This document shows positions 6,278 to 31,134 of a stretch of 32,000 bases of DNA, piece after piece (position 1 is the first letter of the stretch; the number at the start of each line of letters is the position of its first letter). This DNA is from an uncultured Chloroflexia bacterium. GTDB taxonomy: Bacteria; Chloroflexota; Anaerolineae; Anaerolineales; UBA11858. The DNA lies in contig CAWGOD010000005.1 in NCBI GenBank assembly GCA_963824175.1, positions 138,909 to 170,908 of the forward strand, written 5' to 3'. Made by a program: the position numbers and the translations under genes. The notes under the pieces are model-generated. The model had not been told where the DNA came from. It worked only from the letters and a program-made list of their open reading frames with translations, and searched no databases.

Positions 6278-6281
6278 TGGG

Positions 6282-9420: not shown

Positions 9421-9518
9421 AAAACGACAAATCACCATCAGAAGTTTGCCTGAAACGTATAAGGATTGAATCAACAAGGCTTTAAAATCAATTCGCAGTG
9501 ATATCAAACCTGTGATAA

Positions 9519-11273: not shown

Positions 11274-11369
11274 CTATAAACAAGAATATATACAAGAAAC
11301 TGAGTTCGAACAGGTTATTATGGCTGGTTAACACACTTTGGGGTTATGGTTCCCGGGAGGAAAACACTC

Positions 11370-12531
11370 ATGGCTCACGATGCTTTCATCAGCCATTCAT
11401 CTAAGGATAAAACCATTGCCGATGCTGTCTGCGGCACTTTGGAGGGAAAGAATATCCGCTGCTGGATCGCACCCAGGGATGTACCTCCGGGCACCCATTA
11501 CGGTGCTGCGCTTGATAAAGCCATTGAAAATAGTAAGATTTTCGTCCTGCTGATTTCTAAAGGTTCCAATAACTCTGACCAGGTGATCCGCGAATTGGAG
11601 ATAGCTGCCGATAATGGGATCCCTATCATCCCCATTCGCATAGAAGACATCGAACCCACGGATGCCATGCGTTATTATGTCAAATCGCTCCATTGGCTGG
11701 ACGCCCTGACACCGCCTCTGGAACGGCATCTTGAGAAAATAACTGCTTCTGTTCAAGCCTTATTATCCATTGAAGCTGATGAAACAATCTCGCCTGCAGT
11801 CGAGACTATCACCGAAACACTTCCGAAAAAACGCTCGCCATTGCCTTTATGGGCATCAATCCTAATTGGCCTGGCAGCCCTGGTAATCGTGGCTGGTGGT
11901 GCCTGGTTTTTCATTAACCAGTCAAGGTTGGAAGCAGAACCAGAATCAGCGATAGAGATGGATTGGCAGCCAGTATCTTTTATATTCCCGAATCCCCAAA
12001 TATTGGGATCTGACGGTTGACAACCAATTTACCGCGCTTGATCAGCGCGATTCCGATGTGTATGCCTGGTCTACTGAAAGTTATCAAGGCGATCTGACAG
12101 TAAACCTGGAGCTAAGAAGCTCGGTGGAGGCACTTGACCTCAGTTGGGAGGATATGCAAAAGCAGATTCCAAACCAGAATTCAGGCTGCCTGATCCTCTA
12201 TGGAGACGGCACGATGGAATCCCATGGGAGCCTGGTTTTTTGTGTAGACTGGGATGGATATTATATAGATACACATTACCGGACATACGATGATGAAATC
12301 TTGACCTTCGTCCCGCATGATAACCCTTCTGAAACAATCTATGCAGTAACGGTCGAAGTGATCGATGATATGGCCAGTATGTATGTGAATGGGGAAAAAG
12401 TGTTGTCAACCTTTTTCGATCAGGAGGAGATCAACCCCAGCGGAAGGATCGGCTTATTTAAGTCCTGGATAGAAGGGGAAATCACTTTTTCGAATATTCA
12501 GGTTAAAACGTCTTCCGGGATCGGAGATTAG
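11370..12531 (+). CDS. gene C: TIR domain - single TM helix - concanavalin/LamG-like (DUF1080-like) domain; one frameshift near 11995
   Basis: The likely start is ATG 11370, preceded by GGGAGG (the track lists 11346). TIR motifs are DAFISHSSKDK, IRCWIAPRDVPPG, KIFVLLIS and QVIRELEIA. The TM segment is LPLWASILIGLAALVIVAGGAWFFI. The frame ends at TGA 12018-12020. The +1 frame is open from about 11960 (..IPKYWDLTVDNQFTALDQRDSDVYAWSTESYQGDLTVNLELR...GRIGLFKSWIEGEITFSNIQVK) and runs into ORF 12058-12531. The switch lies in the CCCCAAA run at 11994-12000. Confidence 0.8.
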
Positions 12532-12648: not shown

Positions 12649-13539
12649 ATGGAAAATTTAAAATCCCTTCTTCAATCTGGAAAACCCATCCTGCTGGACG
12701 GCGCGATGGGCACAATGTTATTTGCTGCTGGGCTGAATTCAGGTGATTCACCTGAAGAATGGAATGTCCTCCATCCCGACAAAGTGCGGGCAATCCACCG
12801 CGCTTATATCGAAGCCGGATCGCAGATCATCCTGACCAATACATTTGGTGGATCTTCGGTTCGCCTGGAAAGCCACGGATTGGCTGATCGTGTATTTGAG
12901 CTGAATGAAGCTGCCGCAAAAAATGCCCGGGCGGAAGCTGACTCAGCCGGACGACTTGTAATTGTTGCTGGTTCAATAGGTCCTTCCGGGCAGATCTTAG
13001 CACCGCTGGGAACTTTGAGCCTTGAAGACGCTCGCCAATCCTTCGCTGATCAAGCCTCCGGTCAGGCAGCGGGTGGTGTGGATCTGTTCTGGATTGAAAC
13101 TATGAGCGATCTGGAAGAGGTCAAAGCAGCCATTGCTGGGATTCGGTCAGTCAGCGATCTGCCCATCTCGGCGACCATGTCCTTTGATACCCACGGCCAT
13201 ACCATGATGGGAATCAGCCCATCTCGGGCTGCCGAAGAACTCAGCCAGTTAGGTCTGGCTGCCCTTGGCGCCAACTGCGGAACGGGTTCAAATGAACTGA
13301 TTGAAGCCATCCGTGCCATGAAAGAGGCAGCACCTGATTTAGTCCTGATCGCCAAAGCCAACGCTGGTATACCCCAGCTTATGGAGGATGGCGAAGTAGT
13401 GTATAACGGCTCTCCGGATGTGATGGGTAAGTATGCCAAAGAAGTTTTCCAGACTGGCGCCCGGTTGATCGGTGGCTGCTGCGGAAATACGCCTGCTCAC
13501 ATTGCGGAGATGGCAAAAGCCCTGGTAGAATTTTCCTAA
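12649..13539 (+). CDS. stand-alone homocysteine S-methyltransferase-domain protein (MetH N-terminal module / BHMT-like)
   Basis: Intact 296-aa ORF: ILLDGAMGT, ILTNTFG, and the zinc-ligand cysteines in LGANCGTGS and IGGCCGNTP. Confidence 0.85.
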   Translation: MENLKSLLQSGKPILLDGAMGTMLFAAGLNSGDSPEEWNVLHPDKVRAIHRAYIEAGSQIILTNTFGGSSVRLESHGLADRVFELNEAAAKNARAEADSAGRLVIVAGSIGPSGQILAPLGTLSLEDARQSFADQASGQAAGGVDLFWIETMSDLEEVKAAIAGIRSVSDLPISATMSFDTHGHTMMGISPSRAAEELSQLGLAALGANCGTGSNELIEAIRAMKEAAPDLVLIAKANAGIPQLMEDGEVVYNGSPDVMGKYAKEVFQTGARLIGGCCGNTPAHIAEMAKALVEFS

Positions 13540-14070: not shown

Positions 14071-15349
14071 ATGAAGTTCAAACAATCAAAAGTATTTATC
14101 ATAGTGGCTGTATTGATCGCGCTGTCACTCGTGATTAGCAGCCTGCCAGGCTCCTGAGCCCGAAGCTGAACAGGTCTTCAAAGTCGGCTTCTTGGGCCCA
14201 TACAGTGGTCCCAGTGCTCAGACCGGCAAACAGTTCAAGGGCGGCGCCACAATTGCTCTAGAAGAAGTTGACTACAGGATCGGCAACTACACCATTGAAC
14301 CAGTCTGGGTTGACTCCCAGTCTGACCCCGCCAAAGCCTCCCAGGCTTATGAGCAGGCCGTGGTGCAGGACGGCATCCAGGCCGGCGCCCTCAACTGGCA
14401 CAGTTCAGTTGCTGTGGCTGTCATGGAAGTGACTGCCAAACACCAGATCCCGCACATCTTTGGTTTCGGCGCTACCGAGAAGGTGAATGAGACCTTTGCA
14501 CTCCGACCCCGAGAAATACGGCTACTGGTCCACCAAAGGCTGGCCCACCCCCGCTAAACTTGGCAACAAGTATATTGATGCCCTGGAATACTACATTGAA
14601 CAGGGTGTTTATGCTCCTGAAGCCAAAACCGTTGCTATCTACGGTGAGGACACCGACTGGGGCCGCAGCTTTGCCGCTGGCGTGATCGATCTCTTTGAAG
14701 CTGCTGGCTGGGAGATCGTCTCGGAAGAGTATTTCCCCCTCGAGCAGACCGAATACACCGCCTACCTGAACCAGGTGAAAGACTCTGGCTCCGGCAGTTC
14801 TGGCTGGCACCAGCACCTCCCCTCCCCAGATTACCTCCCTGATCAAACAGGCTGATGAAATCGGCCTGGAAAGCCTGATCATCGCTGACGGTCTGGGCTG
14901 GGTGGACTTCTGCGGCCTGACCGGCTCCTCCGCGACCGGGGTCATGGACCAGATCGCAGGCTGGTCTGGCGATGCAGGTTTTGCCTTCGCTGAAGAATTT
15001 GAATAGCGCTACAACCTCATCCCCAGCACCTCCTCCGCTGGGCTGGCCCATGACGGCACCAAGATGCTGCTGGAAATCATGCAGGCTGTTTACGATGAGA
15101 CATGGTGAGATTACCAGTGAACTCATCCAGCAGTTTGTGGAAGAGAATGTCTGGACTGGTGAATGGACCATGACTGACGGTATCGTGATGGTGGAATACA
15201 AGTACACCGAGGAAACCACACCTGATCCCGTGGTTGGCCCTGGCTTCTACACCTTCCCCGTGCTGCAGTATGAGTACGTTGACGGCAAATGCCTCGGCAA
15301 ACCAATTTATCCGGTTGAAGGTGCAGTACAGGACCTGATGGTTCCCTAA
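14071..15349 (+). pseudogene. Liv/HAAT-type ABC substrate-binding (lipo)protein, disrupted
   Basis: AAGGAGG lies 8 nt before ATG 14071. The signal peptide is MKFKQSKVFIIVAVLIALSLVISS. The body (VFKVGFLGPYSGPSAQTGKQF...DPEKYGYWSTKGWPTPAKLGNKY...IIADGLGWVDF...AGLAHDGTKMLLEIMQAV...) is spread over frames 1>2>0>1>2. That is four frameshifts, plus an in-frame TAG at 15004-15006. Confidence 0.8.
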
Positions 15350-15373
15350 AGGGTGATCCAACCCGGATGAATA

Positions 15374-15409
15374 ACAAGGGGTGGTGCGGTTTTACCCGCC
15401 ACCCCTTGT
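15374..15409 (+). promoter_or_regulatory. intercistronic GC-rich stem-loop after the binding-protein gene
   Basis: ACAAGGGGTGG(TG)CGG-loop-CCGCCACCCCTTGT. This is the usual position for an mRNA-stabilising or partial-terminator hairpin in ABC importer operons. Confidence 0.5.
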
Positions 15410-15427
15410 GTTAGAGAGGAAAGAAAC

Positions 15428-16180
15428 ATGATATTAGACACAAAAGAGGTGACCAAAAGATTTGGTGGGCTTACCGCTGTCAACCAGGTATCCATGCAAA
15501 TCGAAGAGGGAGAAATCTTCGGTTTGATTGGCCCCAATGGAGCGGGTAAGACCACCTTTTTGAATTCGATCGCCGGCAAATTCCCCCCACCAGTGGGAAA
15601 GTAATCTTCCAGGGAGAGGAAACCACCGGACTACCGGCGGAAGCGATGTGCAAACGGGGACTGGCCAGGACGTTCCAGATTCCACGTCCTTTTCCGAAAT
15701 TGACAGTCCTCGAAAACGTCAAAGTTGGCGCTGTTTTTGGTCCCTCTGCACACGGATTGAAATCCGCTGAGATCCGGGCTCGTGAAGCCCTGGAATTTGT
15801 GGAGTTCAATCTGCCAATTGACACACCGGCCTCGCAGTTAAATGCCGTGCAGCTAAAACGAATTGACCTGGCTCGAGCCATATCCTGCCAACCGAAATTA
15901 TTATTACTGGATGAGCTTGCTTCCGGATTAACCCCAGGCGAGCTGGATTCCATGATGGCCCTCATCAAGCGCATCCGTGATGATGGTGTGACTATCATTG
16001 CCATTGAACATATCATGCGCGTGATTAAAGGGATCTGTGATGAGGTGATGGTGATCGAATACGGCATAGACCATCGCCGAGGGCACTCCAGATGAAGTGC
16101 TCAACAATCCCAGAGTCATTGAAGCGTATTTAGGAGAGAAGTTATCAGGAGAAGAGGAGGCCCCCAATGCTGGAGCTTAA
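15428..16180 (+). CDS. ABC transporter ATP-binding protein (LivG-like), two frameshifts as written
   Basis: Walker [11 protein letters not shown]-loop, signature-like [14 protein letters not shown], Walker B LLLLDE, H-loop IIAIEH, C-terminus PRVIEAYLG. The frames run 2>1>2, with breaks near 15595 and 16065. Confidence 0.8.
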
Positions 16181-16875
16181 GAACCTGGACTCCGGGTACG
16201 ATTTTCTTCAGGTACTGTGGGGAGTTTCCTTCACTGTTGAGAAAGGAGAATTCATTGCCCTGATCGGACCAAACGGCGCTGGAAAGTCCACTACATTGCG
16301 CACTATTGCTGGGCTGTTAAAACCCAAGGGCGGGGATATTCTGTTTAATGGGGAATCCATCAATAAACAAGCGCCCTCACATGATCAGTCGGATGGGAAT
16401 CAGCTATGTTTCGGAAGCCCTTGAATCTATTTACTGATATGTCTGTCCAGGAAAACCTGCTGCTGGGTGCTTATGCGGTAAAAGAGAAAGAAACCCAGCT
16501 GGAAACCCTGGATTATATTTTTGAGCTTTTTCCCCGCCTGGAAGAGAGAAAAGATCAGCTAGCAGGCACGATGAGTGGGGGCGAACGGAAAATGCTGGCG
16601 ATTGCCAGGGGTATGATGTCCAATCCCACCCTGATGCTTGTAGATGAGCCTTCCCTGGGACTGCAGCCCAACTTGACCTATGATGTTTTTGATGCTTTGC
16701 TGAAATTGCGTCAAACAGGGTGTGACCATTCTGCTCGTGGAACAGAATGTGAATGCCACCCTCGACTATCACCGATCGAGCTTATATTCTTGAACAAGGC
16801 AAGATCGTTATGAGCGGACCAAGCCATGAAATGAAAGCCAACGAACATGTCCGGAATGCTTATCTGGGCATCTGA
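16167..16875 (+). pseudogene. ABC transporter ATP-binding protein (LivF-like), disrupted
   Basis: Walker [10 protein letters not shown], signature MSGGERKMLAIARG, Walker B LMLVDEPSLGL, then VTILLVEQN and AYLGI*. There are three frameshifts, near 16385, 16725 and 16770. The ATG overlaps the end of the previous gene by 14 nt. Confidence 0.8.
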
Positions 16876-16937
16876 GCGGCTGAATTAATCTAGTACTGCT
16901 GAGTCAATACTGCAGTACAGTCTAAGGAGAAAAGTAT

Positions 16938-17995
16938 ATGGCAAAAGAAACTTCTGCGGCACCTATGACCACAGGAAATTTCCTGACCTGGCTCAAAGAT
17001 AATTTGCCCGTTGTGGTAGTGTCAATTTTTTCGATTGTTCTCTTTATCCTGGTCGGCTTTGAAGGCGGCGCACCCCAATTATTTAACGTGCTCGTAACTG
17101 GGGGTATGTGGGCTTTGCTGGCAACCGGCCTGGCGCTGGTCTTCGGCGTGATGAATATCCCCCACTTCGCGCACGGGGAATCATTCATGGTGGGGGCATA
17201 TGTAGCCTATTTTCGCATTTACCCCACTGAATAAAATTTTCCTGGCCACGCGGCAGCAAATTCCTGATCTATTCGGGACCAATTCTGGCGATCATCGCTG
17301 CCTGGCCTGGCTGGATGTGTGTTGGGCATCATCATTGAAAAGATTATATTTGCCCCCTTGCGCCATCGCACCAAGGAAGGCTGGGTCATGAATGCCTTCC
17401 TGCTGACGGTTGGTCTGTCTTTCATCCTCGATCAACGGCACTACCCTGACCCTGGGTCCAAACTTCCGGGGCATCCCCCGCTACTATGATGTCCCATCCC
17501 TGGAGATAATGGGTGCCTTTATCGCTGTGGACCGCATTGTCGCCAGCTGCGATTGCTCTGGTTACAATTGGCTTACTGTGGTTTTTCCTGCGACAGACCA
17601 AGACCGGACGTGCTATCCGGGCAGTCTCCCAGGACGAAACCGGCGCCCAGCTGGTTGGCATTAACCTGGACTTCATCCAAACTCTGACCTTTTCCCTGGC
17701 CACCGGCACTGCCGCGATCTCAGGTGCCTCGCTTTTATTCATGTTCCAGGCTTATCCCACCGTGGGTCTTACTCCGCTATATTTTGCCTGGTACGTGGTC
17801 ATGCTGGTAGGCTTGGGTAATATCGCCGGAGCCATTGTGGGCGGATTTATCGTCGCCCTGCTACAGTCCGCCACCCAGCTATTTATCGGACTCTCCTGGC
17901 AGTCGGTTGTTCCGACCGCCATCATGATCCTGGTGCTGATCCTGGCTCCTTCCGGTATATTCGGCAGTGAAGTCAAAGGCGTTCAGGAACAATAA
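16938..17995 (+). pseudogene. branched-chain-type ABC permease (LivH-like), disrupted
   Basis: The hydrophobic LivH-like sequence ([27 protein letters not shown]...RAIRAVSQDETGAQLVGINL...) is spread over at least five frame segments. The last and longest piece is ORF 17513-17995. Confidence 0.75.
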
Positions 17996-18014
17996 ACGAG
18001 GAGATATAAAACTA

Positions 18015-19199
18015 ATGAACTCAACTGCAACTTACGGAGAAAAAGGAACTGTCTGGGAGCAAATTTGTATCCTTCCTTAATAAGATTGGCTTTTCACCAT
18101 TGGGTTTGGTCCTGCTGATCATCCTGGCCGTACTGCCCAATTTTTATCCCTTTTCGCAGGAATATATTGTCCGCTGGTTGATCATGGGGGCTTTCCTCGC
18201 CGCCCAGTCTGTGGCGTTTGACTTCACAGCAGGATATATCAACATCGTTAATTTGGTTTTGCCGCCCTGTTGGGGTTGGGAGCCTATACATCAGGTATTC
18301 TTGCCAACACCACTCCCTTTTTGCTTTATGCCCCTGGTCTCAACCCCTGGCTTACGATCTGGCTCGGTGCCATGATGGCCGGACTGGTGGGATTTGTGCT
18401 TGGCATTCTCACACTGCGATTGCGTGGTATTTTTGCCGCCGTGATGGCTTGGTTTGTTGGTATCGCCTTGATGGGGGTGGTCAATAACCTGACCGACCTC
18501 ACCCGCGGCCCACTGGGTATGAACCCGGTGAAATTTATCGATACGCCCAACAACCTGCCTTATTTCTATATCATTTTAGCGATGATGGTTTTTATATACA
18601 TCGTCCTAAAGCTGGTCGTGGGATCCAATATCGGGTTGGCGTTTAAAGCGATCGGCCAAAATCCAGACGCAGCTCGGGCTTCAGGGATCAATCCCACTAA
18701 ATATCTGGTCTTCAACTTCACACTTTCCGCTTTTTTTGCCGGTCTGCTGGGTGGATTCTATGCCCATTTCTTCGGATCCTTAACTCCCAGCACGTTGATG
18801 CACACCTCAAAAACCGTTGAGGTGCTGGCAATTGCCTATATTGGGGGCAGGGGCAGCTTGTGGGGTGGTATCACAATCGCCTTCCCATTTGTGTTCTTCA
18901 TCGAGTTCCTGCGCTCAAACCTTTCCAGTTTGCCTGGCCTGCACCTGGTCATTTATGGTGTTTTGATGGTTTTGATCATGATTTACTACCCAAAAGGTTT
19001 CAGCGGCTTTTACTTCTGGGCAGTTGCCAAAGTGAAAAGCTTCATTCAAGAAAAAATGCACCACGATCCCCCGGAAAAGAACACCCTTGCTGTTCGGCTA
19101 TATGCAGCAGCCAGAATTGACGTCCGTTCTTCTGCGGGGTGTTCGCGGAAGAGAAATATGATTCTCTTTCTCGCTTCTACTTCTCCCCAGATCAAATGA
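18015..19199 (+). CDS. branched-chain-type ABC permease (LivM-like), two frameshifts as written
   Basis: ATG 18015 follows AGGAG. The frames run 0>1>0. One break is a missing T in AATTTGGTTTTGCC near 18250 (expected ..INIVNFGFAALLGLGAYTSG..). The body includes AFKAIGQNPDAARASGINPTKY. The C-terminal 50 codons are doubtful. Confidence 0.75.
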
Positions 19200-19231
19200 C
19201 CAACGAATAAGATATAAGGAGATAATAATCC

Positions 19232-20641
19232 ATGCAACCGACTTGATTACCTCACTGCCTCTAACCTGGAGGCGATCCACCAGGCCACAATGGAAATCCT
19301 CCAGGACATTGGCATCCGCTTCCCCCACCCGGAAGCTCTGGAGATCTTCAAAAAACACGGGTATCAAAGTGGATGGACAATTAGTTTACTTCCAGGAAGA
19401 ACAAGTGATGGAAAAAATCAAGGATATCCCTTCCCTATTCACCATTCAAGCCCGGAACTCTAACCACAACGTCACCATCGGCGATGGCTTTCCCGTATTT
19501 GCCCCCGGTTATGGAGCTCCTTTTTTAATTGATCCCGAAGTTGGCAAACGTGTGCCTACCATACAGGATTATAGAGAATCTGGTCCGGCTGGCCCACATG
19601 CTGCCCAATCAGGATATGAGCGGCCATCTGCTGGTAGAACCCCAGGACATCCCTCCGGAAACTAGCCACCTGCAGATGGTCGCTGCCAATATCCGCTCTC
19701 AGATAAAGCCTTTATTGGCAGCACAGAGGGAAAGAACGGTGCTCAGCACACCATGGATTTGGTCAAAATCCTGTTTGGTGATCCCACCAAAGGCCATTTC
19801 ACCACCGGCCTGATCAACCCGCTCAGCCCGTTAGGCTACAGCATTGATATGGTGGACGCCTTGCTGATCTATGCCCGCTCCAATCAACCAGTCGTGATCG
19901 CCAGCTTGATCATGGCTGGCTCCACTGGCCCGATCACCCTGGCAGGTGTGCTCGCCCAGCAGAATGCAGAATTACTCTCCGGGATCGTCCTCTCGCAGTT
20001 GATCAACCCCGGTGTGCCCGTAATCTACGGATCCACTTCCACCAATATCGATATGAAAACTGGCGGTCTGGCGATCGGCAGCCCCGAGCTTTCCCTGTGC
20101 ATTGCTGCCCATGGCCAGCTGGCCCGTAAATACGGCCTGGCTCAGCAGAGGAGGTGGTGCCCTGACCGATTCCAGCACCCTGGATGCCCAGGCAGGATAT
20201 GAATCCATGTTCAGCCTGTACACCACAATCTACAGCGGCATTGATTTTGTACTCCACGCGGCGGGCATCATCAGCTCCTACCTGGCCTTTTCCTATGAAA
20301 ATTTGTTATGGATGATGAGCTCTGTGGCATGCTGAAACACTTCTTCCGGCGGTATGGAAGTCACCCCTGAAACCCTGGCCGTGGACGTGATCAAAAACGT
20401 CGGTCATGAAGGCCATTATCTGGGAGAGTCCCACACTATCGAACGCTGCCGGACTGAATTCTGGATGCCTGATCTCGGTGACCGCAGCGGCCTGGAAGCC
20501 TGGTGGGGAGGAGAACAGGAAGACACCACAGCCCGCTGTACAAAACACTGGGAGAAACTGCTCAATGAATACCAAGAGCCTGATCTGGACCCATCCGTGA
20601 AAAAACAAATCCAGGAATACCTCGACCAAGAACTCAGTTAA
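19232..20641 (+). pseudogene. MttB-superfamily (non-pyrrolysine) methyltransferase paralog 1, disrupted
   Basis: AAGGAG lies 10 nt before ATG 19232. The reconstructed protein is MQP.LDYLTASNLEAIHQATMEILQDIGIRFPHPEALEIFKKHG..GLINPLSPLGYSIDMVDALLIYARSNQPVVIASLIMAGSTGPITLAG..GGGALTDSSTLDAQAGYES..GHEGHYLGESHT. Reading it needs at least six frame changes. Confidence 0.8.
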
Positions 20642-20781
20642 ACGCGGATTGGGGCGATAAAAATACCTGCTTTGTATTACATATATCGAATATTGCCCCA
20701 ATCCCTTCCTCCTCTGATATATTTGTAATATACTAAGAGATAGAAGCATAGATATACGATCGAATTATGCAAGGAGAAATC

Positions 20782-21649
20782 ATGACAGAGAACCTGAAAA
20801 CCATACGTCAGTTCACGAAACAAAAACAGTAGAGATCCATCGCTCCAAACCCACCGTGATTATTGGAGAAAGGATCAACCCCACTGGCAGAAAATCCCTG
20901 CTGGCAGAGCTCAAAGAAGGTAAATTTGATATCGTCAAACGTGATGCCGTTGCCCAGGTGGAAGCAGGCGCAGCCATCATCGATGTCAATGCCGGTGTAC
21001 CAGGCGTTGACGAAGAACCTATTCTGAAAGACATGATGCACGCTGTCATGGAAGTCACAGACGCCCCCCTCTGCATTGACACAGCGGATACTACCGCCCT
21101 CGAATCTGCCCTTTCCATATATAAAGGGAAAGCCTTGATCAACTCGGTCAATGGTGAGGAAGAACGACTAGAAGCTGTTCTGCCCCTTGTGAAGGAGTAT
21201 GACGCTTCTGTGATCGCTCTCTGCATGGACGATGATGGCATCCCCCCCACAGCCAAGGACCGTTTCAACGTGGCCGCCAAAATGATCGAGCGAGCAGACA
21301 AACTGGGCATCTCCGCTAGAGAGGTTGATCTTTGATCCCCTGGCTTTGACGATGGGATCCGATCACAATTCCGGCATGATTGCCATCGATACCATCCGCA
21401 TGATTGTGAATGAATTTGGAGCCAATATCACCATGGGAGCCAGCAACATATCCTTTGGCCTGCCGGACCGACCGGTTATCAACGCCACATTTATTGCCAT
21501 GTCCATCCTGGCGGGCTGACCTGCCCCATCACAAATCCCCTGGAAGAAGAAGTCAATCTGGCATCCAGGCAGCCGATCTGGTCATGGCAAGGGATGAATT
21601 CGGCATGAACTGGATCAAGGCCTTCCGAGCCCGATCCAAGGAATCCTGA
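20782..21649 (+). pseudogene. pterin-binding methyl-corrinoid:tetrahydrofolate methyltransferase (AcsE/MtgA/MtqA-like), disrupted
   Basis: VIIGERINPTGRKSLLAELKEG, AGAAIIDVNAG, LCIDTAD, ALINSVNGE, LIFDPLALTMG and ASNISFGLPDRPVINATFIAM resemble MeTr/AcsE. There are three frameshifts, near 21330, 21515 and 21560. The start is either ATG 20782 (good AAGGAG, but needs one more shift) or GTG 20856. Confidence 0.75.
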
Positions 21650-21657
21650 GACAAACT

Positions 21658-22310
21658 ATGAATCAAACCAACGCTGAGCAAGCCTATCAGGAAATAAAAA
21701 AGAGGATCATCAGAACCGAGCTGGCTCCTGGTGCTGTGATTAATGAATCGGAGTTGATGGACGAACTTGGATTTGGCAGAACACCGATCAGGGAAGCCCT
21801 GAAAAGGCTTGCAGTCAGATGATCTGGTGGTTGTAAAACCCCGTCGGGGAATCTTTGTGTCCGAGCTGGCCATCACAGATCTTATCTCAAATCTTTGAGG
21901 TCCGGATAGAGCTGGAAGCCCTGGCCGTCCGACTGGCCTGCCAGCGAATCTCGCGATGAAGAGCTTCAAACGACTGGAAAATCTAGCCGATCAGTACACA
22001 AAAACTCAACTGACAACTCGAAAGAAGAGATGATCGACCTGGATGGAAAATTCCATGCCTTGATCCGGGAAGCCACCCACAACCGATTCCTGATTTCCAA
22101 TCTGGAGTATTTTTACAATCTTTCCTTGCGGATCTGGTACCTGGCACTGCCCCAAGCTGCAGCAGAGGAAATTGATGTCAAGGCCCACTGCGATATCTAC
22201 TCAGGCCATCGCCGCCGGGGAATGAGGAATTGGCCGCAGAAAGAATTGCCAAACACATTCGGGATTTTCACAAAACCATAAAAAACTATCTTATAAATCA
22301 AATAAACTAA
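21658..22310 (+). pseudogene. GntR-family (FadR/FCD-type) transcriptional regulator 1, disrupted
   Basis: The N-terminal wHTH is AYQEIKKRIIRTELAPGAVINESELMDELGFGRTPIREALKRL. FCD-like helices follow (IFEVRIELEALAVRLA, KFHALIREATHNRFL). At least five frame changes. Confidence 0.7.
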
Positions 22311-22347
22311 TTCATCCACAACAAGCAAAATAAGGAGGCTAATTCAA

Positions 22348-22985
22348 ATGAGCGAAATTTTATCCACCATTTCCACCCTGGTCATCGAAGGAAACTTCGC
22401 GGACATGGTGGACATAACCAACGCAGCTCTCGAAGAAGGTTTGGGAGCTGAAGAAATCCTCAACAACGGGCTTATGCCAGGTATGGACCACGTTGGTGTG
22501 GAGTTCAAAGCCGGCAACATGTTCGTCCCCGAAGTGCTGCGTTCAGCAAAAGCCATGCAGGAAGCCATGGACATCATCCGCCCCATGCTGGCGGAATCCG
22601 GGGCAGAGACTGCTCGGCAAGGTCCTGCTGGGGACAGTCAAAGGCGACCTGCATGATATTGGCAAAAACCTGGTTGGCATGATGTGCGAAGGCGCTGGTT
22701 TTGAGATCATTGACCTCGGCAAGGATGTTGAGCCAGAAGCTTTCGTCGAAGCAGTAAAAGAGCACAAACCCAACATCCTGGGCATGTCCGCTCTGCTGAC
22801 CACCACCATGCGAGTCCATGGAACGCACCATCAAAGCCCTGGAAGAAGCTGGCGTGCGCGACACCGTCAAAATCATGATCGGCGGCGCTCCTGTTACCCA
22901 GGACTTTGCGGACCAGATCGGCGCCGACGGCTATGCGGCCAATGCTGCTTCCGCCTCTGAAATGGCCAAACAGTTTGCCGGTTAA
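22348..22985 (+). CDS. cobalamin-binding corrinoid protein 1 (MttC/MtgC-like), two frameshifts as written
   Basis: A B12-binding cap helix bundle, then the GTVKGDLHDIGKNLV (DxHxxG), GMSALLTTTM and IMIGGAPV motifs. The frames run 1>2>0, with breaks near 22610 and 22810. Confidence 0.85.
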
Positions 22986-23014
22986 TACAGGAATTAACCT
23001 CAAGGAGCAAAAGT

Positions 23015-24483
23015 ATGAGAACAAATTACCGAGCAAATTCCGGCGTGCGGTTCCGGATGTTATCAGATGATCAGATTGAGGAGCTGTTTGACGGCGTACT
23101 CCATGTCCTGGAATATATTGGACTGGAAGTAAAACATGAACATGCCAGCGAGGTCCTGAAAGAAGCTGGCGCCTGGGTAGATGGAGATCGAGTCCGACTG
23201 CCATCCTACATGGTCAAGGATGCCCTATCCAAAGCCCCCCGCAGCTTTACTATCTATGCCCGCGACGGCAATCCCGAACATGATATTCACATTGGCCCCG
23301 GGCGAGCTCACTTTGGCCCCGGCCCAACCTGTGTGAATTTCATTGATGTGGAGACCATGGAACGGCGCCCTTACCAGCTCAGCGATGTGCCCATACGTCG
23401 CCAAGGTAGTGGACTCCCTGCCCAATATCGATTTCTGCGAATCCCTGGGATCCGTGGACAATGTCCCCTATGACCTCAGTGCCCTATACGAATTTGCGGA
23501 GATGTTCCGCTACACCACCAAACCCATTGTGGCCTGGTCATTTGATTATTATGACTCCAATGCCATTCACCGTATTGCCGTTGAAGAAGCCGGCGGACAG
23601 GATGCCTTTGAGAAACGCCCCACCTATATCCATTACTGTGAACCGCTTTCCCCGCTGATCTCCACCACAGATTCCCTCAATAAACTGGTCTTCGCGGCTG
23701 AAAAACGAATTCCCCTGATCTTCACCCCCTGCCCCCTGGCAGGCGGCACTGCCCCGGTTACCCCCGCGGGTATCATTATCCAGGCCGCAGCAGAATCCTG
23801 GATGGGGCTTGACCATCGCCCAGAACATTCAGCCAGGAAAGCCCTTCATCATGGGCGGCGTGCTTTCCGTGATGGATATGAGCGCCATGATCCTCAGCTA
23901 CGGCGCGCCCGAGCTTTCTCTGATGATGGCTGGCATCACTGAACTGGCCCATTTTGCGGGACTGCCGCTCTGGCAGACCGGTGGATGCACTGATTCCAAG
24001 ACCTTTGACGAGCAGGCTATCACCGAAGGATCCCTATCTGTGTTCTTCTCCGCTCTTACTGGCGGCGACCTTTGCCATGATGTTGGCTACACCGAAAGCG
24101 GCATGACCGGCTCAGTTTTCCAGCTGACCGCCATGGATGAGGCCATTGGTTATGCCCGCCGCATCACCCGGGGCATTGAGGTCAACGAAGACACCCTGGC
24201 TGTGGATGCAATCCACCGGGTTGGTCCCAATGGACATTACCTGAAAGACGAACACACCCGCCGCTACTACAAATCCGAATACTGGCTGCCCAATCTGAAT
24301 GACCGGACCTCCTATGAAGACTGGGTGATGATGGGCGAAAAATCATTCAAGGACCGCACAGTCGCCAGAGTTCAGAAAATCCTAGCCGAATATGAACAGG
24401 TACCCCTGAAACCTGAAACTGAAAAACTGATTGACAAGGTTTTAGCAGAAGCAGAAGAATGGGTGAAGCAGCAAGAAGATTAA
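23015..24483 (+). CDS. MttB-superfamily (non-pyrrolysine) methyltransferase paralog 2, two frameshifts as written
   Basis: LSDDQIEELFDGVLHVLEYIGLEV, YCEPLSPLISTTDSL, PLIFTPCPLAGGTAPVTPAG, WQTGGCTDSKTFDEQA, GPNGHYLKDEHT. The frames run 2>0>1, with breaks near 23390 and 23810. Confidence 0.85.
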
Positions 24484-24500
24484 TGAGGAGATCATAAAAA

Positions 24501-25168
24501 ATGAGTGAAAAAATATTTGAGAAACTATCTACTGCAATTCTGGAAGGCGACAGCGATGCCAGCGCTTCCCTCACCCAGCAGGGACTTGATGAAGGCGTTA
24601 CCCCCGAGGAATTGCTAAATAAAGGGCTGATTGTGGGCATGGACGAAGTTGGTGTCCGTTTTAAAGCCGGCGACATGTTTGTTCCTGAAGTTCTGATGTC
24701 CGCTGAGTCCATGGCCTCCGGTATGACCTGCTCCGTCCACTTCTGGTCGAAAGCGGCGCCCAAATGGCAGGAAAGATTGTCATGGGCACAGTGAAAGGCG
24801 ACCTGCATGATATTGGCAAAAACCTGGTAAGTATGATGTGTGAAGGTGCCGGGTTTGAGATCGTCAATATCGGTTTTGACGCTGCACCCGAAAAATTCAT
24901 CGAAGCAATCAAGGAACACCAGCCAGAGATCGTCGGCATGTCCGCCATGCTGACCACCACCATGCGCGCCATGGGCCACACCATCAAAGCCATTGAAGAA
25001 GCCGGTTTGCGCGACAAGGTCAAGATAATGGTCGGCGGCGCCCCGGTTGACCAGGAATTTGCAGACAGGATCGGCGCAGATGGATACGGCGCCAATGCCC
25101 CTGCCTCTTCCGAATTGGCGAAACAAATGGTCGGACTTGAGCTGAGAGGAGAAAAACATGCAAGTTAA
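24501..25168 (+). CDS. cobalamin-binding corrinoid protein 2, one frameshift as written
   Basis: Paralog of 22348-22985 with GTVKGDLHDIGKNLV, GMSAMLTTTM and IMVGGAPV. The break near 24730 is consistent with a lost G in ATGGACCTG. The stop overlaps the next gene by 11 nt. Confidence 0.85.
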
Positions 25169-26664
25169 AAAAACAAACTACCTAGTCAACAGTACACCGA
25201 CATTTGAAGTGCTCACTCAGGAAGAGATCGAAGCCATTTATTACGCGGCCTTACTGTCCTCTCTGAGACCGGTGTTCGCGTGTATAACAAAGAGGGTTAC
25301 GATCTACTGGGCGCACATGGCGCAACTGTCGAAGATGTGGAAGAAGACAGCGCCCTGGTAAAACTGCCGCCAGAAATGGTGGATATTGCTCTCTCAACCC
25401 TGCCCCGCAAGGTTGTCATTTACGGCGCGGATCCCGAAAAATACAAAATGGAGCTGTTCAAAAACCAGATCTATTTTGGCGCTGGATCGGACACTCCCTT
25501 CACCATTGATCCCTATACCGGAGAACGCCGCCGGGCCGTGTATAAGGACGTCAAGAACTTCGCCCGCCTGGCGCAGGCCCTGCCCAACCTGGACTTCCAT
25601 ATGTCCCTGGGCATCGTGCAGGATACCGCGGTCGGAACCTATGACCGCTGGCAGTACCTGGCCATGCTGGAAGGCACCACCAAGCCGATTAACATCACCG
25701 CCGTAGATAAAGACGGTTTGAAGGACCAGCTGGAAATGGCTTACATCCGTGTGGGCGGGGAAAAGGAATGGTTAAAAACCCCCATTTTTTCCCTCTACAT
25801 CGAGCCTGTGTCCCCCCTCAGCCACTCGTTCGAAGTGATCGATAAACTTCTCTTCTGTGCTGATCATCGCATCCCGTTTGTGTATACACCCTGCCCATTA
25901 GCCGGGGCGACTTCCCCGGCCACACTGGCAGGCACCGCAGTGCAAGCCCTGACGGAGAGTTTGCTGGGCATCGTTCTCAGTCAGCTGCGCCGCCCGGGCG
26001 CCCCCATGATCATCGGCGGTTTGATGTCCGCTATGGACATGCGCACAGCAGTATACTCCTACGGTTCACCAGAAATGGCACTGCTTAGCGCAGCCTACAC
26101 CCAGATCACCAAATGGCTCGGCGTACCCGAATACGAGACGGCAGGATGTTCAGATGCCAAGATGTACGATGAGCAGGCCGCCATGGAAGCCACTATGAAC
26201 ATCGCCACTGCTGCCCTGGTCGGCGGCAATATGATCCACGATGTAGGCTACCTGGAGCAGGGACTGACCAGCTCCGCAGAGATGATGGTTGCCTCAGATG
26301 AGATCATTGATATGGTCAAACGCATCCTGAGAGGAATTCCCGTCGATGACGAGCAGCAGAGCCCTGAATGTCATCAATGATGTTGGTCCCGGCGGCCACT
26401 ACCTGGCCCATGACCATACCTTTGATCGCTTCAAAGATGTCATCTGGCAGCCCAAATTGCTTGACCGCCAGAACTTTGAAGGTTGGGAAGCTTCCGGAAG
26501 CAAGACCCACCGCCAGCGTGTCAACGAACGCGTCACGGGAAATCCTGGATCGCGAAGATGAACCCCTCCTGGATAAGAAGATGTTCAAGGAGCTCAAGCG
26601 CATCTGCGACCTGGCTGATGAGAAATACAAAGACCAGGAACTGGATCTAGATATGTTTGTGTAG
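25158..26664 (+). pseudogene. MttB-superfamily (non-pyrrolysine) methyltransferase paralog 3, disrupted
   Basis: LTQEEIEAIYYAAL, YIEPVSPLSHSFEVIDKL, PFVYTPCPLAGATSPATLAG, ETAGCSDAKMYDEQAA, GPGGHYLAHDHT. The frames run 0>2>0>1. The main piece is ORF 25280-26380. Confidence 0.85.
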
Positions 26665-26688
26665 GATATCTATCAGTTGAAAAGACAA

Positions 26689-26730
26689 GGGGCGTGATCA
26701 GGGATTAATCATCGGTCACGCCCTTTGATT
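26689..26730 (+). terminator. rho-independent-type terminator after MttB paralog 3
   Basis: GGGGCGTGA-18 nt-TCACGCCC followed by TTTGATTG, 25 nt after stop 26664. Confidence 0.5.
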
Positions 26731-26746
26731 GTCATGAGGTAGGAAG

Positions 26747-28760
26747 ATGAACAAAAAAATCCCGCCAGAAAATCTAGTATTGGGCATTGATACTGGAGGA
26801 ACTTACACCGATGGTGTGCTGCTGGAATATAACACCCACCAGATCATCGCCGCCCACAAAAGCCTGACAACCAAACGCGATTTTTCGATTGGGATTGAAA
26901 ATGTGATCAAAGAGATAGAACTGGAGGATCCTTCCGCGATCCAGATGGTCTCAATCTCCACCACTTTGGCAACCAATGCCATTGCCGAAGGGAAAGGCAA
27001 ACGTGTCGCTCTGTTCTTAATCGGATATGATCCCGATCTGATCAATTCCTTCGACATGGGAAAACGATTCTGCTACACCCCATTATTACTACATCGATGG
27101 GGGACATGACCTTCATGGCCAAGAAAAAGCGCCCCTTGATCTTCCAGATTTGCTTGAAAAAACCAAAGCCAATCAAGAACAAAGTGGACGCCATAGCAGT
27201 CTCATCCTATTTCAGTCCCCGCAATCCTGAACATGAAATCCGGGCCCAGAACGCAATAACCAGTGTCTGCGAGCTGCCTATCGTGCTCGGTCACCAGCTG
27301 TCCACATCGCTTGGGTTCTATGGAACGGGCAACCACTGCGGCACTGAACGCTTCCCTTCTGGCTGTGCTCCAGGATTTCATCATCGCCGTGCGCCGGGCC
27401 ATGGAGAATCGGGGAATTAATGCCCCACTGATGGTTGTTCGCGGTGATGGCACCTTGATGAACGACTGAATTTGCCGCCCAGTCTCCAGTGGAAACGATC
27501 CACTCTGGCCCCGCAGCAAGCGCGATCGGCGGCAAGATTTTTATCTGGTGAAGACCAGGCCCTGGTGCTTGATGTTGGCGGAACAACCACCGATCTAGCA
27601 TTGATCAAGGATGGCAAAGTCACAGTATCTGAAACCGGCGCATCCGTATCTGGCTATCAAACTGCTGTAAAAGCTGCCAATCTATTATCTATTGGGCTGG
27701 GCGGGGACAGCCATATCACTCTAGGACGAGGGAAATGAGATATCTCATCGGTCCAGAACGAGTGGTTCCGCTGGCTTATCTATCTCATCATACATAAAAA
27801 TGTTAGCGAACGACTGAAAGCACTTGCTAAACGGGGCTGGCCTGCCCCCTATCCCCGGGAGTTTGAATACTGGTTCCTGCAGCGGGAAGTTACCTGATCA
27901 AAATTCCTTCACAGCACGGGAACAACAGGTTATCGAGATCCTGAGATCAGGCCCAAAACCTGCCACTGAAGTGCTTAAATCCCTGGGTTTACTGGATCCC
28001 AGCCAGATCGATCTCAGCAATCTGTGGCGGGAAGAAATTACTGGCAAATCAGGTTTCACACCCACAGATATCCTCCACGTGGAGGGACAACATACACCCT
28101 GGGATGGAGAGGCCAGCAAAGCCGCCCTGACTGTGTTCAGCCATTACCTTAATTGGGAGGAGGATGCATTTCGAACGCGTTTTCTGGGAAAGCGTGTCGC
28201 GAGAAAATAGTCAAGGCTGTGATCTATTTCTTGACCGAAAAGGATATACCTGCCCGGAACACAGCCCATTCACAACCTGGCGAACTGGTTCCTGAACAAC
28301 TCGCTGAAACCTGAACACGAGCAGCTGGCAACCCAGATCAACCTTAAATTCCCTCTGATCGGGATTGGTGCTCCAGCAGAGGTTATGCTGGAGAATGACT
28401 GCCCGAATATTACATACGGATCTAGTATCTGCCGGCTCATTATCAGGTCGCCAACGCGGCCGGGGCGGTTGCCGGGAGCGTCATGGTAACTGAAGAGATC
28501 CTGATATACCCGCACTTCTCTGCTGGAGATGTGGATGTGATTGGATATTACCTCCAGTCCCGGGACAGAACGAGAGGAAATAGAAGAACTGGATGATGCT
28601 CTCGCCAAAGCAAAAGAGATTGCTGGGGAAAACGCCTCAGTGCTGCCCTGCGCTCCGGCGCAGACAACCCCCAGGTGATATCTAGAAGTAATCCAGGATG
28701 GGATGGACAGTTACCGTGATGAAAGCCAAGGCAGTTGGAAAACCCCGCCTGGAAGGATAG
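26747..28760 (+). pseudogene. hydantoinase/oxoprolinase-family (ASKHA fold, MutL/GlmL-like) protein, heavily disrupted
   Basis: LGIDTGGTYTDGVL (Hydant_A_N-type phosphate-1 motif), SISTTLATNAIAEGKG, MVVRGDGTLMN, ALVLDVGGTTTDLALI, LSIGLGGDSHI. It can be followed across at least six frame changes and several stops, to ..TVTVMKAKAVGKPRLEG* (TAG 28758-28760). Confidence 0.6.
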
Positions 28761-28770
28761 GAAGAATTAG

Positions 28771-29419
28771 ATGAAAATGAATAAAGTTGATACCGAAAAA
28801 GTTTACCAGCTCTTATGGGAGAAAATAACCTCCCTGGAACTGGCACCAGGAGAGATCCTGGATATCGCCGCTCTGGCAGATGAAATGGGTTTTTCACAAA
28901 CATCCATTCGGGAGGCCCTCAGTATGCTTGTCCACGACCACCTGGTGGAAGCTCCTCCGCGAGGTTTATATGTTGCCGAGTCTAAAGTTCAGCGATCTGG
29001 AAAAAATCAGCACGATCCGCCTGAATCTAGAAACCCTGGCTGCACAGCAGGCGGTCCGCAACGCCAGCAAAGATGATCTGGTCATCCTGAGTACTTTATG
29101 TGAAGAAGTTGCCCAGGATACCCGCGAGTTATTTAAGCTAGACCAGAGATTTCACCAGGCCATCGCCAGGGCTGGCCCACAACAGCTACCTGGCTGACAC
29201 TCTTGGATCATTTTTATGGACTTTCTAAACGGCTGTGGTTTTTAGCCCTCCCCTACCTGGATTTCCTTCCCAGCGCAGTGAAATCACATATAAATCTGGT
29301 CGCAGCCATTCAGGAAGAAAATGAATCCGCTGGCCATGGAAATCATGCAAAACCACATCGAGGAATTTTATCAAAAAATCCAAGAGATCATTAAGGATAA
29401 AAATCTTATCAGAGAATAG
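28771..29419 (+). pseudogene. GntR-family (FCD-type) transcriptional regulator 2, disrupted
   Basis: VYQLLWEKITSLELAPGEILDIAALADEMGFSQTSIREALSMLVHDHLVE, then IRLNLETLAAQQAV, DQRFHQAIARA and SHINLVAAIQEENE. At least three frame changes. Paralog of 21658-22310. Confidence 0.7.
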
Positions 29420-29477
29420 TTGGTTTTTTCAATGATCAGCTTTAACTTTTATTGGTAATTGGAATGGAGCAGAAAAC

Positions 29478-31134
29478 ATGGCTAAAGTTACGGTCGTATA
29501 TGGCACAGAAATTAAAACTGTCCAGGCAGAGGAAGGAGAAATTCTTGGTGATGTTGTTGCCAGAACAGGTCTGCCCCTGGAACAACCTTGTGCTGGGCGT
29601 GGAACATGTGGCAAGTGCAAGGTGTTGGTCGAAGAAGGAACAGCACCTCCTGATGAAATAGAATTAAAGAATCTAACCGCGGGAGAAATCGCCCTTAATA
29701 ATCGCCTGGCCTGCCGGGCCCGGGTCCAGGGGGAAACACGCATTATGCTCTCCCCCATCGTTGTGTACTCCAATAAGATATTCCGGGGAAGCAGCCGCTA
29801 TAAAAAAGAAACCGACATTCCCTTGGGTTTGGCTATTGACCTCGGATCAACAACCGTGGCTGCCTTCCTGACCTGCTTGGACAATGGCGAGGTTGCCGCG
29901 GGAGGCGGGGGTCTCAACCAACAAACAGTCTTTGGTTCAGATGTGATTTCTCGCCTGGCATCTGCCCTGGACGATGATCAGAATAAAAGACGTCTCCACC
30001 GCCTGGCATTGGCATCTATAATCCAGGCCGTTGATTCCCTGAACCTTCCTGATAAAATTTGGCAGCGTATTCAGCAGGTGACCATTGTTGGTAATGTTGC
30101 CATGCACCACCTGCTGACAGAAATGCCACTGGAAAAACTGGCTTATATCCCCTTCCAACCCCACGACAGTGCTCCCATCAAAGACGCCAGCAGCCTTGCT
30201 GGATGGTATATTCCCGGAGCATGTAAAGGTATCCCTTCCTCCGCTTATTGGTGGATTTGTGGGCTCAGATGCCCTGGCCTGCTTGGCCTATTTTGGATAC
30301 GATCAGCCGGAAGGACCCCAACTGGCCATTGACCTGGGCACGAACGGAGAAGTGATGGTCACCGATGGGGAGCGCATCCTCACCGCATCGACTGCAGCCG
30401 GCCCGGCTTTTGAGGGTGTAAATATATCCTGCGGCTCCCGGGCTGTGGATGGTGCAATTACTGACCTCACATTAGAGAACGGAGAGGTTAAACTGTCAAC
30501 TATCGCCGACGCCGATCCTGTTGGATTAACAGGATCCGGTTTGCTGGCAGCTATCGCAGCTTTCCGTCGGGTGGGCTTGATTGAGGAATCAGGAAGAATT
30601 AATCCCGAATGTGAATCATTGGCTGAAAAACTTCGGAATGGAAAGGCAGATCAGGCAGAATCTGACCTGGACAGTGGAAACATTCCCCAACCTTGTCTGG
30701 ATTATCTTCAGAAAATCAGCCAAGACGATAAAGGGAGCCGCCGCATTCAGCTAGCAGAAGATCAGGACCTGTACCTCTCTCAGCTGGATATCCGCGAGCT
30801 TCAAAAAGCCAAGGGGGCTATCCGGGCCGCTGTGGATGTCCTGCTGGCCAACCTCAATCTCAAACCTGAGGATTTAACCCGGGTGATCCTGACCGGATCT
30901 TTTGGCGGCCAGGTGGATATCCAATCAATATTGGATATAGGGATGATACCCCCTGTTAAAATAGAAATTGTAGAAACAGTAGCCAACGGAGCTGGTTTCG
31001 GCGCAGCCATGTTCCTGACCGAGGATGGATTTGCCCTGGGGGAAAAACTGGCCCAGAAGGCAGAACAAATCGACCTGGATACTGATGCAAATTTCCAGCA
31101 GTTTTATATCGAAGGCATGAAGCTAGCACCCTAG
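29478..31134 (+). CDS. RACE-type reductive activator of corrinoid enzymes (2Fe-2S ferredoxin + ASKHA/DUF4445), one frameshift as written
   Basis: The N-terminus has the plant-type ferredoxin pattern CAGRGTCGKC...LACRA. The ASKHA motifs are LGLAIDLGSTTVAAF and LAIDLGTNGEVMV, then AAGPAFEG. The frames run 0>1, with the break near 30200. Confidence 0.8.

Follow-up and report, generated by a model that had tools for sequence, protein, structure and literature searches.

The window analysed here, a 32,000-nt stretch of a public metagenome contig from an uncultured member of the Anaerolineales, contains 15 neighbouring genes of a transport and methyltransferase cluster, all broken by frameshifts. 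This raises the question of whether the organism has lost the pathway or whether the deposited sequence is faulty. As the genes carry no sign of real decay, the broken frames almost certainly represent uncorrected long-read consensus errors in the deposited contig, and the cluster is very probably intact in the organism. Judged from the sequence, the block is most unlikely to be a real biological feature.

Extent, spectrum and localisation of the indels

In the stretch from 14 to 30 kb, the longest ORFs have a median of 330-600 nt, compared with 1200-1870 nt in much of the left part. Indels were called by aligning the intact orthologous proteins of the relative L003 to the DNA with a frameshift-aware method, and were counted a second time in nucleotide multiple alignments with 6-7 intact relatives. 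The two methods concordantly revealed about 58 insertions and 10 deletions of one nucleotide each, together with 2 insertions of two nucleotides, the latter located in an intergenic position (20746) and in the first GntR regulator gene (22010); one in-frame TAG accompanies the indels of the block (Table 1). Both kinds of alignment confirmed the claim of the first-pass annotation that all 15 genes need frame changes, since 15 of 15 contain frame-breaking indels. Its total of 45-50 breaks was too low, with about 68 events in coding sequence. The hydantoinase-like gene, given there with at least 6 breaks, was rightly recognised as broken and was the most under-counted: with 17 insertions and 1 deletion, its event density is the highest of the block.

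Table 1. Coordinates of the error-rich block, its genes and their events in the window. SBP, substrate-binding protein; MttB1-3, MttB-family methyltransferases 1-3; event sites are window positions.
Feature	Coordinates	Strand	Length in relatives (aa)	Events
Isolated 1-nt insertion	4182	-		in N6/N4 DNA methylase gene (~2993-4273); not at homopolymer
Error-rich block	14134..30191	+		first to last window-private indel; ~70 events, ~4.4 per kb
Peripla_BP_6 SBP	14071..15349	+	423	4 one-nt insertions: 14134, 14500, 14784, 15100; in-frame TAG 15004-15006
ABC ATPase 1	15381..16177	+		3 events: deletions 15424, 15582; insertion 16071
ABC ATPase 2	16167..16872	+		4 insertions: 16364, 16418, 16711, 16766
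BPD_transp_2 permease 1	16938..17995	+		5 insertions: 17210, 17250, 17303, 17430, 17545
BPD_transp_2 permease 2	17967..19052	+		insertion 18060; deletion 18251
MttB1	19196..20641	+	468 (most relatives)	5 insertions + 2 deletions: 19240, 19364, 19573, 19695, 20144, 20298, 20348
Pterin-binding (MtrH/MtgA-like) methyltransferase	20767..21649	+		3 insertions + 2 deletions: 20805, 20816, 21318, 21512, 21561
GntR/FCD regulator 1 (GntR1)	21658..22295	+		7 events: 21809, 21882, 21953, 21967, 22010 (2 nt), 22201, 22221
Corrinoid (B12-binding) protein 1	22348..22985	+		insertions 22614, 22815
MttB2	23015..24483	+	488	insertions 23393, 23809
Corrinoid protein 2	24501..25168	+		1-2 events: deletion 24725; insertion 25137 (last codons)
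MttB3	25158..26664	+	501	deletion 25252; insertions 26353, 26536
Hydantoinase/oxoprolinase-like protein	26747..28760	+	665	18 events
GntR/FCD regulator 2	28716..29419	+		4-5 insertions: 28717, 28981, 29174, 29203, 29329
RACo/RamA-type corrinoid reductive activase	29478..31134	+	551	insertion 30191; clean downstream

Alignment noise in divergent genes was rejected as the source of these frameshifts. Each frameshift was charged 12, as against 8 for a codon indel, and nearly all events are insertions without compensation nearby. The hydantoinase-like gene exceeds its orthologue by 16 nt, the very difference predicted by 17 insertions and 1 deletion.

One-nt insertions outnumber one-nt deletions by about 6:1 (58 vs 10; binomial P = 2e-9), insertions make up 85% of the events, and no event is longer than 2 nt. 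An identical neighbouring base is missing at 44 of the 58 insertions; the remaining 14 have one, where chance alone would give about 25 (P = 0.003), so that identical-base adjacency is depleted. Clear examples of insertions in otherwise conserved text are GAAAGAC[T]CTGGC and ATGAACGA[C]TGAATTTG. The spacing of events is Poisson-like (CV 1.0), and no common motif, slippery site or homopolymer was found at the ~70 event sites. The least conserved quartile of the sequence has 9.2 events per kb and the most conserved quartile 1.7 (P = 0.001), a roughly fivefold difference, and the event density per gene correlates with dN among intact relatives (Spearman rho 0.77, P = 7e-4). The single in-frame stop beside ~68 frameshifts compares with at least 10.6 expected on the assumption of 5 or more substitutions per indel (P <= 3e-4).

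The indel density is ~415-435 per 100 kb in the block and about 9-17 per 100 kb in the flanks. At the rate of the island, the intact ORFs of the left part, which add up to ~11.1 kb, would be expected to hold ~46 events, and none breaks them (P ~1e-20); 7.5 would be expected in the 1.8 kb past 30191, where none was observed (P = 6e-4). The localised nature of the disruption, described in the first-pass annotation, is borne out by these figures. Of the three breaks reported there for the left part, at least two of them at homopolymers, one was verified (4182) and lies outside any homopolymer, the stretch of 7.6-13.5 kb having no comparable relative for this check. The insertion costs the methylase ~40 N-terminal residues (388-aa ORF here vs 428 aa in three relatives); it is of the same kind as the insertions of the block and is the background error level outside it. 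A broken gene at 6.8-7.6 kb was rejected, as this ORF-free stretch is the RNase P RNA gene; tRNAs were sought in the window and none was found. A GC shift was likewise rejected as a marker of artefact: the operon has the same GC content in intact relatives (0.49-0.53), so that the higher GC is incidental and native to the operon.

A local mutational process, for instance repeated error-prone repair of breaks or a mutator targeted to the region, might have made real insertions fast. That the events keep within a single block of 16 kb, whose edges are fairly sharp, would suit such a process, as would the near-pure spectrum of one-nt insertions with almost no substitutions, which it requires. To our knowledge, however, no insertion-generating process of that kind is known in bacteria. 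The sites lack a sequence motif; an isolated event of this type lies outside the block, and others are seen in an independent contig that looks error-prone. The density also tracks conservation, which would be invisible to a mutator acting on DNA but not to a consensus built from mapped reads. We consider this process extremely improbable.

Comparison with relatives and selection on the repaired genes

Alignments with seven relatives (L001, L003, L005, L007, L002, L004 and L006) revealed none of the window's events in any of them, and in all, over 15 syntenic relatives with intact genes are free of these events; the JGI metagenome contigs L091-L100 and L131 carry the full set of ORFs intact. 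The check proposed in the first-pass annotation, whether indels are common to relatives, thus gave a negative result: no event was shared in the frameshift-aware or the multiple alignments. The closest relative, L089, matches the window at 93.7% identity over 25650-28347 (2.7 kb) and lacks all 14 coding insertions and the 1 intergenic insertion that the window has in this stretch. It has two private 1-nt insertions of its own in the hydantoinase-like gene, not shared with the window, which could be read as a tendency of the lineage.

The dN/dS of the repaired genes, a calculation proposed in the first-pass annotation, resembles that of the relatives: 0.060-0.073 (about 0.06-0.07) between window and relatives and 0.052-0.079 among the relatives themselves. 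Replacements at residues that are invariant in all other sequences number 24 in the window and 56-161 in each relative. Between window and L089 (dS ~0.2), MttB3 has a dN/dS of 0.056 and the hydantoinase-like gene one of 0.19; third codon positions account for 41 of 48 and 67 of 108 mismatches, respectively, and there are no stops.

Very recent pseudogenisation of the whole transport/methyltransferase island, with frameshifts gathered once the pathway had become dispensable, was one of two explanations offered at the outset. It would account for the involvement of all genes of a coherent cluster beside nearly clean housekeeping flanks, and the frameshifts do stand in the deposited record. Relatives of the left flank (95% nt identity) are common and the closest relative of the island is rare, which suggests a losable accessory region. 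The indel spectrum, however, is opposite to decay in its lengths of at most 2 nt, its excess of insertions and its lack of a homopolymer or slippage preference; bacterial pseudogenes reportedly show a deletion bias and mixed indel lengths. The explanation is further contradicted by the single stop against ~68 frameshifts, by the unchanged dN/dS and by the private replacements, which are fewer in the window than in any other sequence. Against L089, 14 frameshifts coincide with 0-1 window-derived replacements, and an event density graded by conservation would have no basis under neutrality. Pseudogenisation thus appears very improbable. We hold it to be highly unlikely, too, that the insertions are real in another sense, namely that the strain recently inactivated its quaternary-amine methyltransferase island by a burst of non-templated single-base insertions, through an unknown local insertion-biased process too recent for substitutions to follow.

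Amino-acid identity to the orthologues between the breaks is 81-95%. Such full conservation would also be compatible with genes that are functional as written, their frames being restored at expression by programmed ribosomal frameshifting, transcriptional slippage or RNA editing. Yet the ~70 sites share neither a slippery motif nor a homopolymer, and a slippery motif conserved in the orthologues, the expected mark of programmed frameshifting or slippage, does not appear at them. Orthologues in more than 100 related loci are in frame without recoding, and the sites are absent from L089. Recoding has in our view next to no probability.

Consensus error as the proposed origin of the block

Consensus error remains the preferred reading, and several observations bear on where the errors sit. 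Truncated products of 284, 152, 120, 102, 101, 98 and 97 aa occur verbatim in a public protein collection, all from one NCBI/ENA contig of 204,493 bp, which places the errors in the public deposit. The idea that errors had been injected into the window was rejected, as the truncated products are public and the density follows conservation. An intact copy of the island from the same population was not found in protein, GTDB and JGI metagenome searches. The best identity was 94% in a protein search with an MttB3 fragment, 94.7% among members of the 90% clusters, 84% (nt) in the GTDB genome scan and 87.8% (nt) in the JGI metagenome scan of Illumina contigs. A chimeric consensus, with the island as a mosaic of near-identical pieces of relatives, was rejected because every relative shows 72-90% identity in every gene.

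Published indel densities are 474 per 100 kb for long-read-only and 22.8 for short-read-polished assemblies; polishing removed 172,854 insertions vs 12,674 deletions, and PacBio subreads are insertion-enriched (PMC6487183). The densities of block and flanks match these unpolished and polished figures, respectively. The other initial explanation, a locally unpolished, low-coverage or strain-heterogeneous region, thus agrees with the published densities as well as with the indel spectrum, the non-sharing and the purifying selection; only its link to the GC-richer zone proved incidental. Biased indels of 1-2 nt, private to one assembly and found in genes under undiminished purifying selection, are what a long-read error block would be expected to contain, and all of these traits were observed here.

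The contig would derive from a long-read or hybrid metagenome assembly in which consensus building or polishing was effective in the flanks, where some 10-20 indels per 100 kb would be left, and ineffective in the block. The likeliest cause may be that own-strain reads are of low depth in this segment, which would be accessory and variable between strains, or that very few long reads bridge the patch. Reads from co-occurring related strains would map to conserved sequence and out-vote random insertions there, which may explain why residual errors are rarer in it. We infer both the sequencing platform and the reason for the sharp block edges. Non-homopolymer insertions are unusual in well-polished nanopore assemblies, and a PacBio-CLR-like or very low-depth consensus would be needed.

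The case is mainly one for caution. With such a block in a public MAG contig, annotation would call the 15 genes pseudogenes or split them into dozens of short hypothetical proteins, and pseudogene and gene counts are inflated; read at face value, it would imply a false loss of quaternary-amine and methyl-group metabolism in the lineage. Error can be told from decay without reads by a battery of tests that considers the indel spectrum, whether relatives share the events, the ratio of stops to frameshifts, and dN/dS together with private replacements. The error density graded by conservation is a small methodological curiosity that hints at cross-strain read recruitment in consensus building.

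The repaired cluster and comparison with known systems

The methyltransferase content is the biology of the region and is separate from the indel anomaly. Pfam searches with the intact L003 orthologues identified PF06253 (three times), PF02310 + PF02607 (twice), PF00809 and PF14574 + PF17651 + PF00111, and the gene identifications of the first-pass annotation were correct. In L003 the ORFs are uninterrupted, and the MTTB-domain, corrinoid, pterin-binding methyltransferase and RACo activase genes are encoded together. The cluster comprises an ABC uptake system, three MttB-family methyltransferases, two corrinoid proteins, one pterin-binding methyltransferase, a RACo/RamA activase, two GntR regulators and the hydantoinase-like protein. 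Betaine/methylamine utilisation is predicted, the substrate hints being limited to homologue names such as 'Glycine betaine methyltransferase' and an adjoining BHMT-like gene.

The non-pyrrolysine MttB superfamily includes MtgB/MtgC/MtgA of Desulfitobacterium hafniense and MtcB, MtpB and MtyB of Eubacterium limosum, which act with a RamA/RACo activase. The repaired cluster has the features of such a non-Pyl MttB/corrinoid/pterin methyltransferase system for quaternary-amine demethylation, as far as gene content can indicate: its MTTB-domain proteins lack an in-frame amber codon, and they are encoded with B12-binding corrinoid proteins, a pterin-binding methyltransferase, a RACo activase and an uptake ABC transporter, next to a betaine-homocysteine S-methyltransferase gene. 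In contrast to the named systems, the host belongs to the Anaerolineales (Chloroflexota), the substrates are predicted from homologues only, MttB occurs in three paralogues, and a conserved hydantoinase-like gene is part of the cluster.

The block resembles real pseudogene clusters of host-restricted or niche-shifted bacteria in the disruption of a whole module with many frameshifts per gene. Unlike them, it has no build-up of nonsense codons, no larger deletions, no deletion bias, no relaxed dN/dS and no natural indel spectrum, and its lesions are not common to the nearest relative.

Residual indel errors in long-read assemblies are said to fragment genes. Such gene-fragmenting indels in long-read or hybrid (meta)genome assemblies are the subject of the Kastor tool (PMC12007338). 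The block is similar to these assemblies in its isolated 1-nt indels, insertion excess and shortened gene calls, in its density (~400-470 per 100 kb unpolished, ~20 polished) and in genes that are otherwise of orthologue quality. It differs from evenly spread long-read error in that only a single 16-kb block of a 204-kb contig is in the high-error state, and from known long-read error in that residual errors become rarer as sequence conservation rises.

Frame-breaking indels of the island

The median length of the longest ORF reached up to 1872 nt on the left of the window and fell to 330-600 nt over 14-30 kb. We counted the breaks by two independent methods: the intact proteins of the relative L003 were aligned to the window DNA with a dynamic programme permitting 1- and 2-nt frame changes, and the window DNA was aligned with six to seven relatives and the window-private columns were listed. 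Both methods gave the same picture for the island (14134-30191), with about 58 one-nt insertions, about 10 one-nt deletions and 2 two-nt insertions. All 15 genes are disrupted, as the first-pass annotation had described, from one event in the activase RamA to 18 in the hydantoinase-like gene; the annotation's total of 45-50 breaks, however, was too low, as about 68 lie in coding sequence. The single true in-frame stop of the block is a TAG at 15004, where relatives display GAG, GAC or AGC. No events were found in the 1.8 kb past 30191 (7.5 expected, P = 6e-4) or in the intact BHMT-like gene (3.7 expected, P = 0.025), and no ORF-breaking events in about 11.1 kb of intact left ORFs (46 expected).

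Every lesion in the block is 1-2 nt long, and the one-nt events are skewed towards insertions (58, compared with 10 deletions; P = 2e-9). The inserted bases were T (19), A (16), G (12) and C (11), the spacing of lesions showed a coefficient of variation of 1.0, and no motif common to the lesion sites was visible in the block. Of the 58 insertions, 44 have no identical base beside them and only 14 do, whereas random insertion would have placed 24.9 next to one (P = 0.003). The extra base stands out plainly in conserved text, for example in GAAAGAC[T]CTGGC and ATGAACGA[C]TGAATTTGC. In bacterial pseudogenes, indels typically vary in length and deletions predominate, neither of which holds for the block.

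Gene decay or assembly error

Two explanations had been offered by the first-pass annotation, recent pseudogenisation of the island or a locally low-coverage, strain-heterogeneous or unpolished long-read region, with dN/dS of the repaired genes and the sharing of indels with relatives as checks. After stripping the window-private indels, dN/dS between window and relatives was 0.060-0.073, level with the values among the relatives themselves (0.052-0.079), and the gene-by-gene result was alike. At positions where all the other sequences share one residue, 24 replacements are private to the window, compared with 56-161 for each relative. About 3% of random substitutions in the island genes yield a stop; assuming, conservatively, five substitutions for each indel, 10.6 or more stops should have arisen, whereas one was observed (P = 3e-4). 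The window shared no event with any of the 6-7 relatives in the alignment, and the JGI metagenome contigs nearest to the island (L091-L100, L131) have an intact ORF set.

The closest relative found, L089 (2685-nt contig, run ERR11523668), is 93.7% identical to window 25650-28347 and lacks all 14 coding insertions and the one intergenic insertion of the window in this stretch. The two differ by a dS of about 0.20, with mismatches mostly at third codon positions and a dN/dS of 0.056 in the methyltransferase gene MttB3 and of 0.19 in the hydantoinase-like gene. When polarised by outgroups, 0-1 replacements are window-derived; with 14 frameshifts and no more than one such replacement, the balance is opposite to that of any natural mutation spectrum. 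Within the limits of sequence evidence, pseudogenisation of the island is rejected, contradicted by this spectrum, the one stop, dN/dS and the private nature of the lesions. L089, a Logan assembly, has private 1-nt insertions of its own at 1363 and 1803, none common with the window, which break up its hydantoinase-like gene so that three ORFs result; run ERR11523668 may be error-prone long-read data too.

In a long-read metagenomics study (PMC6487183), assemblies from long reads only had 474 indels per 100 kb, short-read polishing lowered this to 22.8, and short-read assemblies had fewer than 2; polishing took out 172,854 insertions versus 12,674 deletions, and PacBio subreads were called insertion-enriched. 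Indel densities of about 415-435 per 100 kb in the island and about 9-17 in the flanks match these figures, so that the block resembles unpolished long-read consensus within polished sequence, in line with the second explanation. We therefore consider the block very probably an assembly artefact. The errors are present in the public record: seven truncated products (284, 152, 120, 102, 101, 98 and 97 aa) occur verbatim in a public protein collection, begin at true gene starts and stop at frameshift-induced stops. The 284-aa product (P0273) is a truncated RamA. Each of the seven comes from one and the same 204,493-bp NCBI/ENA contig, on which the window's ArgS, imidazolonepropionase and BHMT-like proteins are also encoded, all three intact.

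Confinement and local conservation

Three relatives of the left flank (L081, L084, L085) were reached through protein-cluster look-ups, L084 being 95.3% identical to window 1-6281. The only window-private coding indel in this comparison, a 1-nt insertion near 4182 that is not at a homopolymer, removes about 40 N-terminal residues of the N6/N4 DNA methylase and is probably an assembly error like those of the block. Public metagenomes often contain close relatives of the left flank (95% nt, ArgS 97% aa), whereas the nearest relatives of the island are far more distant or rare. This suggests that the island is a strain-variable segment with a low depth of own reads, or one bridged by very few long reads; its size of about 16 kb is within the range of single long reads.

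Conservation was measured in 61-nt neighbourhoods among intact relatives only. Event density (window 14100-30200) dropped from 9.2 to 1.7 per kb between the least and the most conserved quartile (P = 0.001), and per gene it correlated with the dN found between intact relatives (rho = 0.77, P = 7e-4). The gradient speaks against neutral decay or random injection, since both would give a uniform density, and random error governed by read depth alone would not be expected to produce it. It suggests cross-strain read recruitment in consensus or polishing, in which reads of co-occurring related strains would map where the sequence is conserved and aid the consensus there. Compared with L001, L003, L005, L007, L002 and L006, the repaired island (14071-29416) has the shortest terminal branch and the fewest private amino-acid changes (three-point dN branch about 0.017; L001 0.034, L003 0.048). 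This short branch could be real or reflect a consensus drawn from mixed strains; cross-strain read mapping would also fit it.

Gene content of the region

Features of the window
Feature	Position	Strand	Remarks
N6/N4 DNA methylase gene	about 2993-4273, insertion near 4182	-	388-aa ORF here, 428 aa in L081, L084, L085
Class-A bacterial RNase P RNA gene, full length	6939-7344	+	RF00010, 251 bits
506-aa ORF without Pfam match; 584-aa TrkA_N/RyR-domain protein; 224-aa TIR-domain protein; 157-aa ORF	within 7656-12531		
BHMT-like gene, intact	12649-13539	+	296 aa, homocysteine S-methyltransferase domain (PF02574); directly upstream of island
Peripla_BP_6 binding protein, two ABC ATPases, two BPD_transp_2 permeases	island	+	Pfam, L003 orthologues
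Three MTTB-domain proteins	island	+	Pfam, L003 orthologues
Two B12-binding corrinoid proteins	island	+	Pfam, L003 orthologues
Pterin-binding methyltransferase	island	+	Pfam, L003 orthologues
Two GntR/FCD regulators	island	+	Pfam, L003 orthologues
Hydantoinase/oxoprolinase-like protein	island, 26747-28760	+	665 aa; Pfam, L003 orthologues (L003 12936-14933)
RACo-type activase, then EamA transporter	island 3' end	+	Pfam, L003 orthologues

The RNase P RNA gene accounts for the lack of ORFs at 6.8-7.6 kb, between rpsT and the gene that follows it. No fetched relative covers window 7.6-13.5 kb, and 7656-12531 is a variable, defence-like neighbourhood unmatched in every fetched relative; in L085-L087 a 760-aa TIR/SBP_bac_5 protein lies at the position beyond the RNase P RNA. 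Homologues of the BHMT-like protein carry the name betaine-homocysteine S-methyltransferase. A homologue with 75% identity (P0018) is also present on the contig behind L007. The closest homologue other than the protein itself reaches only 87% identity, compared with 97% for ArgS and HutI.

The window belongs to an Anaerolineales (Chloroflexota) genome, and a scan of species-representative genomes with one island protein returned 80 loci, nearly all from Anaerolineales/Chloroflexota MAGs. Five relatives (L001, L003, L005, L007, L002) align colinearly with window 14.0-32.0 kb, with a nucleotide identity of 78-84%, and have 15-16 uninterrupted plus-strand genes in the matching region. Pfam analysis of the intact L003 orthologues agreed with the gene list of the first-pass annotation. 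The aligned Anaerolineales relatives and most related loci retain the hydantoinase/oxoprolinase-like gene within the MttB/corrinoid cluster; a role for it in methyl transfer is not obvious. An intact orthologue of the methyltransferase MttB2 is present in more than 120 related loci, and what underlies the block biologically is a conserved cluster of non-Pyl MttB, corrinoid and transport genes in Anaerolineales, of a known and widespread kind.
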